Positions 36,001-39,000 of a DNA stretch of 47,271 nt are shown here, in pieces; the stretch's first letter is position 1, and every line of letters begins with the position of its first letter. Source of the DNA: a virus (lineage: Duplodnaviria > Heunggongvirae > Uroviricota > Caudoviricetes); the IMG/VR virus record IMGVR_UViG_2839594473_000016. The stretch is one strand, 5' to 3'. The position numbers were made by a program.

Positions 36001-39000
36001 CACGACGTCGCCAGTAGGTGTTCACCGTCGGCGGGTAAAGCAAAACAAACTCTATACGCATCAGTAACCTCTTTTACCCGAGCACGCCGGTTGCAAAGGC
36101 GTGATCAAGAAAACGAAAAATTAAATCAACCTGGGAACCATGCTTTTCTTCGAACGCCAGCGGATCCGCATGAAGCTCGTTGTGATGCTCCCGACACAGC
36201 GGTAGCGTGAAAATATCGTGGGATTTTGTTCCCATTCCGCCCTGACCATGACCAATCAGATGATGAGGATCGTCCGCTGGCTTACCACAACACGCACACG
36301 GCTGTGTCTTTACCCAGCGTGTGTATTTCTCATTTACCCAGCGGCGACGTTTAGGTCGTTTCCTGAAGGATTCCGGAGACTCCGGATCAACGGCAATGCT
36401 GACCACCGTCTTTTCCTGTGGTGGGTTCTGTTGCTGGTGGGTGTGAGACGGTAGCGCAATATTTTTTGTGCGCTGCTTCAGTATGCTGGTGGCGGTCTGT
36501 TCTCCCGGTATGATGTCGCTTTCACGGTATACGGAGCGGATTTTTTCCGCACGCAACCCCAGCGAACGACGTAATACCGCTTCCGGTAGCGCGTCCGCCA
36601 CCTGATTGCGGACCGCCCACCAGGATAATTCAGCCAGAGATAATTCACGCTCCTGTGCGCCATTCATTGCGTGACGGATGATGTCAATCATCCAGGCGGC
36701 CAGATTCTGTTGAGCAAGTTGATCCAGTGAATCAGATGTCTGCTCCCGCAGCTGGTTGTCGCAGTGCCAGCACAACACCATCGCGCCGGTACCGTAACGG
36801 TGAATGACGGTTTCGCTATGATGATAATCACCGTGTAGCCACTGGCAGGATTTCACGTGACGTAATAACCAGTCAGACAGTGCACCAGCGCCACCCGCAG
36901 CACGGATCACCCGCTCATCGCTGAAAAATGGCAGTAGTGATTTATCTTCCGCCAGCGGCTGGTGAACGGCAGGTACAACCCCGGACGGCAGAGCTCGCAT
37001 GCTTTTTGGTTCCGGCTCCACCAGTATTCTGCCGTTATGGAATGCTGACATTGATTCACGGCCTGGCTTAACGATAACCAGACCGAGTTCCGGTACCAGA
37101 ACAGGTCGAAGTAATACCCGCACATTACCTCCAGATCCGTTGCTGGAATGTGCGGGACGGACGCGGTGGCCGTTCGGAGTAAGGGAGCCTGACGGAGATT
37201 ATCCAGTGACGGTAGTCGAGGCTAAGGGCTTTTTTAACCTCGCATCCGCGCCTGCGGTAACACTGAATGAGCCATTCGGCCTGTTCTTCAGTGCATGGGG
37301 GATGCTGGTACCAGTCAGATTTGAATGCGTGAAAACACCGTCCGCGCCTGCTGGCAAAGACGGCAGAATCATCAGAATTGTATAATTTGGTATCGTGCGC
37401 CATCGGTTGTCTCTGCTGGCGCAGCAGGTGCCAGTTGTTCAGGCTGGCGTGCGAATTGTAAACCAGAATGCCAGGAAAAAACAAAACCCGCCGAAGCGGG
37501 TTAAGTGCGGGTGCGTTGAGGATGCCTGATTCATCAGAGGTGGCGAGGGATTTCTCCCCCGCCAGGTCTCTTACTCCTCAGGTTCGTAAGCTGTGAAGAC
37601 AGCGACCTCCGTCTGGCCGGTTCGGATTCGTACCTCGCAGAGGTCTTTCCTCGTTACCAGTGCCGTCACTATGACGGTGATACAGATGACGATCAGGGCG
37701 ATTAACATCGCCTTTTGCTGCTTCATAGCCTGCTTCTCCTTGCCTTTCGGCGCGTAAGAGGCTAACCTACATGTGTCTAGCATGAAATTGGCCTCAGATT
37801 AATGTTAGGCGTCTTGCAGGACGCGTAATGTTAACTGGGGCTTTTCTCTGTCTACCTTACGGTGGCATGCCCGAGGCAGACAGCCTCAAGCACCCGCAGC
37901 AATTCTACTTAACTCTCGCTTTACCGCAAACCGTTTTTACCCGATATGGGAATTCCCATATCGTAATGAATTCAGTTCCCTAGTCGATCCATCAAAAACA
38001 CAACCAGGCAGTAAACGCCCACAACAGCAATAACAGCCAGCGCACCTTCCATTGCCAGTGAAATATCATCCGACATATTCCCTCCTTTGGTGTGAATCCC
38101 GGCGAACGTTTTTACCCCCACCGACAAATAACATATACTAAAAAATCAATAGCTATAGCAACGCCTGTAATTGCAAAGGCTTCAGGCCAGATCATTGGCG
38201 CACCTCCTGCGGCGGTTCTGGTAGCGGCATCCAGTCGGTTACATTGCGGCTCTGTGTTTCGAAAAATTCATCACCATTACGGACTACATCAAAAAACTCA
38301 CCGTCTCGATATTGCGCATAAAGAACGAATGCGCCATCACATAAAATAATTACGTGCTGACCATCATCCGGCATTCGCTCACTACAGCTTATCCAACCAT
38401 CCGGAGTTACCGGATAGTTGGTTGACGTTTCCGAGATTTCCCGAAAATTATTGGTTGACGAACCCTTATTTTCCCGAAAGTTTCCAGCCTGAAGCATGGC
38501 GGCGCGGTGACACCAGATAATCCAGCCAAGCGCCATATCCCATACCATGTAATCTCTATCGCCATTTTTTGCTCTGCGGCGATCTACAGATTCTCCGAAA
38601 CGCTTCTCCATAAATAATTCATAGGCTGCTCGTTCATCCGATACTGCTGCCAGTGATGCCAGCGCAATCCGTGCCAGCTCTTCCGCTTCTTCTGCTGGAA
38701 GCACAACGTTGCTACCCGGTCCGTATGTTTCGCGCCAATGCTGGATTGTCAGCAGTCGATCTTTGGTAATAGTGGTCATAGCTATTTCACCTTAATCTCA
38801 ACATTTCGCAGCTTTAGCTCTACTGGCATGTCTGACTTTCCTGTTAATGCTAATGCGAGATTTTCTGGAGTAATGAGAGCAGTTATTGTTTTCCCCATCG
38901 CCAGACGAATAATCATTCGTATTTCGCGATCGTCACATGCTCCTGGTCGAACAATTGATATTTGTCCGTTCATCTCACTCTCCTTTGATGCGAATGCCAG

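Follow-up and report, generated by a model that had tools for sequence, protein, structure and literature searches.

Two described systems stand closest to the locus considered here: hok/mok/sok (parB) of plasmid R1, and hokW-sokW of the Escherichia coli O157:H7 prophage Sp5, a working toxin-antitoxin system of type I, one that aids lysis and the release of phage after mitomycin C (PMC8621323). Our subject is a cassette of the same kind and, above all, two very short open reading frames (ORFs) beside it, in a 47,271-nucleotide stretch of DNA recorded as the virus IMGVR_UViG_2839594473_000016 (Caudoviricetes) and called here, at its full length, the window. The window is the O157:H7 prophage Sp6: over 1,351 bases around the locus, the sequence is 100% identical to that of Sakai, EDL933 and many other O157 genomes, and the Sakai record places the stretch within “prophage Sp6; lambda-like phage.” What are two hydrophobic reading frames of 27 and 34 codons (ORF-A and ORF-B) doing in front of a toxin gene, and are they any part of its business? 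The explanation that we favor, with somewhat better than even confidence, is that an autonomous hok/mok/sok cassette lies next to two separate micro-genes of the transcription unit of the upstream DUF551 gene, and that these two would make an accessory membrane factor.

The hok part of the locus shows no essential difference from the R1 and Sp5 systems. All share a 51-residue Hok/Gef toxin with an overlapping mok frame, a Sok start just inside mok and an mRNA of some 400 nt whose 5' and 3' ends pair to close it. The Sp5 system is carried, like this one, by a lambdoid prophage of the same strain, and toxicity and neutralization in the Sp6 copy would follow by analogy with it. RefSeq gives the Sp6 protein the name HokD, the same as that of hokD (relF) in the Qin prophage of K-12, and the downstream order (hok, a small gene, DUF968/ydfU, Q) presumably resembles that of Qin; the PPompW phages label the same hok neighbors rem and ydfU. 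In K-12, hokD is said (in an account by Pedersen and Gerdes from 1999) to lack the upstream mok/sok control region and to lie behind relBE, whereas in Sp6 the control region is intact and the upstream slot holds the micro-ORFs.

For the micro-ORFs themselves, the nearest likenesses are of a different sort. The moron gp15 of HK97 is an example of a small prophage inner-membrane protein. Small proteins that cross the inner membrane once, as found in E. coli and its prophages (for reviews, see PMC12648545 and PMC11323111), resemble ORF-A and ORF-B in having fewer than 50 residues, one hydrophobic helix and a strong Shine-Dalgarno site, as well as in lysogen expression, in occupying a variable accessory slot of a lambdoid prophage and in narrow distribution; the micro-ORFs differ in that our searches found no sequence relationship to described families and in that the pair can be fused by a single base. 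The type I toxins (TisB, Ibs, Ldr, ShoB and Hok) are alike in size, hydrophobicity and prophage location; the micro-ORFs differ from them in having no antisense RNA that we could find, no long structured 5' leader and, for ORF-B, efficient translation in growing cells, while ORF-A is coupled by overlap to an ordinary upstream gene.

We should say at once how much of this is new. The hok cassette and ORF-B are already in databases and literature, and the hok/sok part merely confirms a textbook system in a well-annotated pathogen genome. What the analysis adds is an argument for ORF-A, evidence that the pair is independent of hok, a palindrome at the junction and a set of natural fusion alleles at a run of G; the outcome is a refinement of annotation and not a discovery. 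The micro-ORFs offer a minor instance of the “dark” microproteome in prophages of Shiga-toxin-era E. coli. One of the two is demonstrably translated in lysogens, and they illustrate how conserved coupling signals can argue for a gene like ORF-A, and natural fusions can link it with ORF-B, when both are too short for ordinary tests of selection.

ORF-B and the toxin question

Sp6 is a defective lambdoid prophage, and the micro-ORFs and hok sit in its nin-like region, which runs from the replication genes to Q, the gene of the late antiterminator. The DUF551 gene, the micro-ORFs and hok/mok are all on the minus strand of the window, where the order is DUF1627, DUF4406, DUF4752, Ea22-like, DUF551, the micro-ORFs, hok, a 92-residue hypothetical gene, DUF968, RusA and Q. 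The first-pass annotation, made from the sequence alone, had described the two hydrophobic frames of 27 and 34 residues, the ATGA overlap of the first with the DUF551 stop and an AGGAGG site before each, and all of this holds exactly as described. Related loci, about 200 of them, came from IMG/VR together with a few genomes and assemblies; database relatives of the micro-ORFs were sought by exact look-up, with a 51-residue upstream-extended frame and with an artificial fusion of ORF-A to ORF-B; and EDL933 coordinates were converted by taking the window position as 1676638 minus the record position.

Two features define ORF-B:

37972..38076, minus strand: ORF-B, 34 amino acids, MSDDISLAMEGALAVIAVVGVYCLVVFLMDRLGN (RefSeq ECs_5710 / WP_001278450.1; XECs145)
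38081..38086, minus strand: Shine-Dalgarno site AGGAGG of ORF-B, read from the sequence, 4 nt before the ATG

ORF-B encodes a real single-pass inner-membrane peptide and is translated efficiently, a conclusion that we draw from published ribosome profiling (RIBOseq) and from the protein-level constraint reported below. Its peptide has an acidic N terminus followed by one transmembrane helix, with a grand average of hydropathy (GRAVY) of 1.33 and a best 15-residue window of 3.0. It had been called unannotated, which does not hold, for RefSeq lists it as a coding sequence for a hypothetical protein (EDL933, WP_001278450.1; Sakai, ECs_5710), and the exact peptide occurs on about a thousand contigs of the protein collection. 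Hücker et al. in 2017 listed it, with a start further upstream, as the novel translated gene XECs145 (PMC5597208). In lysogeny broth (LB), they reported 79 reads per kilobase per million mapped reads (RPKM) for RNA and 346 for footprints, a ribosome coverage value (RCV) of 4.35 and a footprint coverage of 0.99, where annotated short genes in the same study have a mean RCV of 1.55; in brain-heart infusion (BHI), the figures were 121, 150, 1.14 and 0.84, and under cold and salt stress, 73, 1.1, 0.01 and 0.37 (PMC5597208). Ribosome occupancy, which the first-pass annotation had proposed as a check on both frames, is thus on record for ORF-B. We found no main-text mention of ECs_5710, WP_001278450 or XECs145 in the literature, and neither micro-ORF peptide is in the supplements of “Cryptic Bacterial Microproteome.”

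The pattern of substitution agrees with translation. The ORF-B frame is open in every locus examined (a slightly early stop, at 32 residues, occurs in a few), its AGGAGG is nearly invariant over haplotypes (one group has GGGAGG) and its surroundings show a single indel, the loss of 1 nt from the noncoding spacer of one locus (L141). Over 19 nucleotide haplotypes, synonymous and nonsynonymous changes number 14 and 14 (a nonsynonymous-to-synonymous ratio, omega, of 0.35; p = 0.005 for synonymous excess), and among variants present in two or more haplotypes they number 11 and 5 (omega 0.16, p = 0.0004); omega is about 1–2 in the other two frames, so that the excess is confined to the frame of ORF-B. 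The common replacements are conservative ones (A/V, I/V, M/I, F/L and D/E). Lack of conservation across prophages had been named as a refuting outcome; ORF-B shows this synonymous excess, and ORF-A keeps its signals and frame, with no synonymous excess. Another frame inside ORF-B holds a 25-residue hydrophobic ORF, MIFHWQWKVRWLLLLLWAFTAWLCF, at 37992-38069 on the minus strand; the substitution pattern favors the frame of ORF-B over it.

How often would such a pair arise by chance? Of 5000 dinucleotide-shuffled versions of the 252-nt stretch, 0.14% contained two ORFs of at least 25 residues with a Shine-Dalgarno site in front, and none contained two that were also hydrophobic. The pair has few relatives. 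Neither peptide gave anything meaningful against Pfam, PHROGs, NCBIfam or PADLOC; among 185,579 species-representative genomes, there was no match to six 8-residue peptides of ORF-B or to a degenerate pattern of the ORF-A C terminus; and a full HMMER scan of 1.84 billion cluster representatives returned only relatives of at least 79% identity. By these sequence searches, neither peptide appears to have homologues outside E. coli prophages. Within the species, the micro-ORF segment is in 732 of 5,426 complete genomes (about 13%), at 2,051 places, often with three to five copies in an O157 genome.

Might the two peptides be additional small membrane toxins, as was first suggested, or holin-like peptides that help Hok to permeabilize the membrane on induction? 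Their size and hydrophobicity are typical of type I toxins, hok adjoins them in most loci (168 of 174) and two sigma-70-like sites lie on the opposite, plus strand, at 38052-38079 (TTGCCA, 16 nt, CATATT) and at 38111-38139 (TTTACC, 17 nt, TATACT). Type I toxins are, however, translationally kept off in growing cells, and ORF-B is not, given its RCV in both LB and BHI; translation well above average in exponentially growing lysogens is unlike a potent silent toxin. The opposite-strand promoter hits are within the expectation from shuffles (4 found versus 1.7 +/- 1.4), and no transcription start opposite the micro-ORFs is among those listed for EDL933 (PMC10469882). Rfam gave no match over 37972-38195 at E of at most 1, fold z-scores over the micro-ORFs are ordinary (-0.8 and -0.7 on the two strands) and, on both counts, we consider an antisense or structured RNA over them unlikely. 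No toxin family, PADLOC or PHROG entry matches either peptide, and the pair is also found without hok. High translation of ORF-B in growing lysogens, the lack of an antisense signal and the lack of a toxin-family match together argue against the toxin idea, to which we give little credence: the micro-ORFs are probably not toxins. The earlier interpretation was right about hok/mok and about there being a gene in at least one of the micro-ORFs; on toxins, it was probably wrong. Its other suggestion, that the micro-ORFs are regulators, is possible.

ORF-A and the natural fusions

The case for ORF-A is weaker, and it begins with the end of the gene upstream:

38192..38779, minus strand: DUF551-domain gene, 195 amino acids (Pfam DUF551, 4.5e-21; RefSeq coding sequence WP_000207955.1), whose TGA stop overlaps the ORF-A ATG
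38203..38208, minus strand: Shine-Dalgarno site AGGAGG of ORF-A, inside the last DUF551 codons, 7 nt upstream of the ATG
38112..38195, minus strand: ORF-A, 27 amino acids, MIWPEAFAITGVAIAIDFLVYVICRWG, an ORF call with one predicted transmembrane helix
38115..38119, minus strand: run of five G directly before the ORF-A stop (TGG GGG TAA AAA C), read together with the DNA of fused alleles

The ATG of ORF-A (38195-38193) overlaps the TGA of the DUF551 gene (38194-38192) as ATGA. The two micro-ORFs had been described as coupled, and this overlap sustains the word for ORF-A; ORF-B starts after a 35-nt spacer behind the ORF-A stop and has its own Shine-Dalgarno site, and there the word fails. ORF-A has a GRAVY of 1.42 and a best 15-residue window of 2.3. 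It is called in a few GenBank submissions (e.g., ASL59204.1).

What speaks for ORF-A is the persistence of its signals. The gene in front of it is a mosaic with at least three C-terminal domains, the DUF551 type (“...WMPLPEPPQEVRQ”), “...IAVEATQGENQ/QGAHQ” and “...GLVGVEDILR,” and behind all three, the ORF-A start, the ATGA stop overlap, a Shine-Dalgarno-like site and the open frame are kept. In the “...VEDILR” context (L141 and L206), homology breaks exactly at the ORF-A ATG, and an unrelated sequence, GGAGGA, is the Shine-Dalgarno site. Also in favor of ORF-A, the deletion that one haplotype carries, of 6 nt, leaves the reading frame intact. The mosaic upstream genes (L040, L052, L076, L083, L141 and L144) share N-terminal and middle modules (...AAMLQAGNFRENK.SSTNNFR...).

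It could be, of course, that ORF-B is the sole functional gene and that ORF-A is a by-product of reinitiation, of use, at most, in holding ribosomes on the message from the DUF551 gene to ORF-B. The omega of ORF-A is 0.64, indistinguishable from that of its other frames; its N-terminal half varies freely (I2N/S/T, W3R, E5D and D17A/T/N); there are three peptide haplotypes, and one of them tolerates an in-frame deletion of 6 nt (two codons); and the Prokaryotic Genome Annotation Pipeline (PGAP) annotates ORF-B and omits ORF-A. Set against these are the survival of start, Shine-Dalgarno site, overlap and frame behind three unrelated C termini (in one with a different Shine-Dalgarno sequence), a hydrophobicity that is uniform in all haplotypes and a C-terminal FLVYVICRWG that is invariant even in loci picked through ORF-B alone. 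The RIBOseq study covered intergenic ORFs of at least 30 residues, a scope outside which ORF-A falls, and the XECs145 interval as its authors define it spans the 3' end of ORF-A and the spacer, with a footprint coverage of 0.99 (PMC5597208). On balance, we consider the by-product account unlikely, though the likeliest of the rivals, and we think it reasonably likely that ORF-A is translated; that its peptide sequence matters, we hold with less confidence.

The search with the artificial fusion turned up something that we take more as a hint than as an answer. Relative to ORF-A, the frame of ORF-B is -1, with no stop in the 35-nt spacer, and real 74-residue proteins exist (P0042 and P0043) that read ...CRWG-VKTFAGIHTKGGN-MSDD... 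across the join. Their DNA has six G in place of five (L205, 2501-2725; L206, 1053-1277; and L207, 556-780), in two distinct haplotypes from three independent assemblies; other fused database proteins (P0044-P0047) join at T-runs. The fused protein consists of two hydrophobic segments joined by a basic loop, and AlphaFold gives it helices at residues 3-36 and 41-73.

Are ORF-A and ORF-B, then, a single 74-residue gene, either split by the loss of one G (and so a decaying pair of pseudogenes) or joined by -1 slippage at G_GGG_UAA or by phase variation of the G-run? The frame relation with its open spacer, the exact join encoded by the six-G alleles and the additional fusions at T-runs all speak for this, and the loop at the join has the basic character that a cytoplasmic turn should have. 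The split form is nevertheless the rule, with five G in 38 and six in two of 40 unique contexts, in every lineage, including the genome SCU-106, in which the pair has a different neighbor (below). ORF-B keeps a perfect internal Shine-Dalgarno site and its ATG; the 1-nt spacer deletion in L141 abolishes the frame relation and leaves both ORFs intact; a run of five G is short for phase variation; the fold of the region shows no stimulatory structure after the slippage site; and homopolymer sequencing errors are possible in some of the fused records. A single gene is, on this evidence, improbable. Its more adventurous form, in which the two ORFs are halves of one switchable two-helix membrane protein and the five- or six-G run or -1 slippage toggles between two peptides and a 74-residue hairpin, is more doubtful still, although if it were true, it would offer a phase-variable or frameshift-tuned membrane factor, for superinfection exclusion or control of membrane integrity, for example, right beside hok. 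We read the fusions instead as rare, tolerated mutants and as a hint that two helices can work side by side; we do not take them as evidence of programmed frameshifting, which we leave as a low-probability possibility.

Linkage to hok and a proposed mechanism

Does the pair belong to hok? From IMG/VR alone, one might have thought so: hok followed the micro-ORFs in all of the first 80 loci. An obligatory linkage is ruled out by loci in a different context. In 11 complete genomes and three assemblies, the pair stands in front of ibrB/ibrA-like genes, with no hok. In the complete genome SCU-106 and in one assembly, it lies behind a DUF551 gene and is followed by convergent genes for an IbrB-like protein and a 3'-phosphoadenosine 5'-phosphosulfate (PAPS) reductase (IbrA-like), and two further assemblies have ibrBA-like genes downstream of the pair and a different gene upstream. 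This alternative module (loci L205-L208; e.g., L208 at 2922-4777) encodes an IbrB-like protein of 214 residues and a PAPS-reductase/DUF3440 (IbrA-like) protein of 408. Conversely, hok with its promoter and without the pair is found behind paa/adfO in PPompW phages, and the 1,351-bp query (hok and its flanks) matches 15,511 places versus the 2,051 of the micro-ORF segment. In deposited phage genomes, the micro-ORFs were not found, and the palindrome alone was matched. That palindrome marks the joint:

37942..37963, no strand assigned: CGATATGGGAATTCCCATATCG, a perfect palindrome of 22 bp lying after the ORF-B stop and before the hok promoter

It recurs where modules meet, between the micro-ORFs and hok here, between paa/adfO and hok in PPompW phages and between the micro-ORFs and the ibrB-like gene in SCU-106. 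Its variants break the symmetry without compensating changes, and a published transcription start maps to its center, 37953 (PMC10469882); it may serve as a joint for recombination or as a binding site, or it may form a weak hairpin.

One can still imagine that the micro-ORFs serve hok, with the peptides binding Hok in the membrane or with read-through into the hok promoter and leader tuning its activation on induction. Physical linkage is tight in most loci, and the start at 37953, with a weak promoter in the 3' end of ORF-B, would yield a 5'-extended hok transcript. The linkage is, however, obligate in neither direction, the mosaic is joined at the palindrome that separates ORF-B from hok, the Sp5 hokW-sokW pair works alone as a toxin-antitoxin system on a plasmid (PMC8621323) and deposited phage genomes, as said, yielded no micro-ORFs. 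We find service to hok very improbable. The micro-ORF pair is not part of hok; it would belong to the DUF551 transcription unit.

That assignment agrees with what lies upstream. On the coding strand, from 38077 to 38446, there is no sigma-70-like site scoring at least 8 of 12 even in a lenient scan, which led us to reject a promoter of the micro-ORFs' own, and a terminator scan found no intrinsic terminator between the DUF551 gene and ORF-B. With no promoter directly before them and no terminator after the DUF551 gene, the micro-ORFs are most simply the tail of the DUF551 transcription unit. The mechanism that we propose would run as follows. Both micro-ORFs would depend on read-through transcription from upstream. 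ORF-A, to judge from its conserved signals, would probably be reached by termination and reinitiation at the ATGA overlap, and ORF-B would be translated from its own strong Shine-Dalgarno site. The two peptides might then act together as a small two-helix membrane unit, which we propose because natural one-base insertions fuse the pair in frame into a 74-residue protein. As speculation, the pair could be a nontoxic, “moron-like” accessory factor of the membrane, modulating a membrane protein of the host or of a phage. Should it modulate one of the host, prevent superinfection or affect lysis, it would be a new accessory factor for the biology of enterohemorrhagic E. coli (EHEC) prophages.

Several observations weigh against our explanation. 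The source of transcription over the micro-ORFs in a lysogen is unexplained by it. O157 genomes hold three to five near-identical copies of the segment, and the RIBOseq authors collapsed identical ORFs, so that the signal for ORF-B is not assignable to Sp6 specifically. The family is very young and narrow, which leaves the estimates of constraint resting on few substitutions. ORF-A is frameshifted in 1 of 78 loci and shows 5 synonymous and 11 nonsynonymous changes (p = 0.29; other frames similar); lacking a synonymous excess, its peptide sequence may not matter. Fusion is very rare (about 2 of 40 unique contexts), and the alleles that show it could be mutants with a neutral or deleterious effect; the AlphaFold model of the fusion is of low confidence (predicted local distance difference test score, pLDDT, of 68; predicted template modeling score, pTM, of 0.37) and there is no function on record for the micro-ORFs.

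The hok/mok/sok cassette

The remaining features make up the cassette itself:

37902..37929, minus strand: predicted hok promoter TTGCGG, 16 nt, TAGAAT (lenient hexamer scan), with +1 at about 37895
37478..37895, minus strand: full-length hok mRNA, about 418 nt (fold; Rfam RF01794)
37571..37783, minus strand: mok frame, 70 amino acids, overlapping hok (ORF call; MokC-like annotation in Sakai)
37571..37726, minus strand: hok toxin gene, 51 amino acids (Pfam HOK_GEF; RefSeq HokD WP_001303917.1)
37485..37502, minus strand: intrinsic terminator closing the hok transcript (terminator scan)
37740..37768, plus strand: Sok promoter TTGCCT, 17 nt, TAACCT (read from the sequence)
37775..37850, plus strand: Sok antisense RNA, with its start, long hairpin and GGGGCUUUUCUCU tail (Cappable-seq start; fold)

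This is a complete, autonomous type I toxin-antitoxin cassette, and there is nothing new in it. The first-pass annotation had named a HokD-like toxin with mok overlap in a nin-like region, and this is fully borne out. Hok matches Pfam PF01848 (HOK_GEF) at 2.4e-23, with 81.9 bits against a cutoff of 22, and WP_001303917.1 is called “type I toxin-antitoxin system toxin HokD” in RefSeq; hok is nested inside mok, in the same frame register as the annotated MokC; and Rfam sok (RF01794) matches 37721-37895 on the minus strand at 114.1 bits, against a gathering score of 59. The 418-nt mRNA has a minimum free energy (MFE) of -176 kcal/mol (z = -6.9), and in both the MFE and the centroid structures its ends pair, 5' GGGUGCUUGAGG (37884-37895) with 3' CCUCAACGCACCC (37509-37521), a predicted pairing that is the fold-back closure typical of hok mRNAs. 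The predicted +1 near 37895 coincides with the first base of the Rfam match and with the 5' pairing element, and no transcription start at 37895 is among the starts listed for EDL933 (PMC10469882).

Sok was expected to have its promoter within 37784-37900. It lies elsewhere, at 37740-37768, and ends 6 nt upstream of an experimentally mapped start, 37775 (EDL933 1638863 in Cappable-seq, present in all nine listed columns; PMC10469882); the interval 37784-37900 contains the body of the Sok RNA and the hok leader. The Sok hairpin folds at -34.3 kcal/mol (z = -5.9), with a U-rich tail after it. We set aside the Pas small RNAs, which have been described close to Sok, as their place is between the esterase and holin genes. 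The cassette has a predicted promoter of its own, a folded-back stable mRNA, a mok leader frame, a constitutively transcribed Sok and a terminator, and, to judge from family membership, Sok would most likely block translation of mok and hok until it decays, as in R1 and Sp5.

A few smaller observations concern the same stretch. EDL933 Cappable-seq also lists hok-sense starts at window positions 37784, 37802, 37830 and 37953, the first of them 1 nt before the mok ATG on the minus strand and in all listed columns (PMC10469882), and the last fits a weak minus-strand site (TCGACT, 16 nt, TACGAT) inside the 3' end of ORF-B; multi-copy read mapping, RNA processing or genuine internal starts are all possible sources of these. 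The 3' hairpins and terminator of the hok mRNA, at 37481-37562 on the minus strand, draw a weak Rfam match to isrK (27 bits, E = 0.005; gathering score 50), most likely a generic resemblance to a hairpin plus terminator. Genes of the hok family are enriched in prophages (bioRxiv 10.1101/2025.08.07.668861). In one IMG/VR prophage (L010, at about 2893-3989), an insertion of about 1.1 kb, probably an insertion sequence (IS) element, interrupts the hok region, and a few other loci are also without an intact hok start. Finally, hok codon Tyr47 (37586-37588, minus strand), in the context CUUACGAA, has a UACG motif that matches the adenosine-to-inosine editing site of TadA (Tyr to Cys), a site described in hokB and stated to be present also in hokC, hokD and hokE (bioRxiv 10.1101/2025.08.07.668861); by that analogy, the Hok protein here would need editing at Tyr47 to gain a second cysteine.

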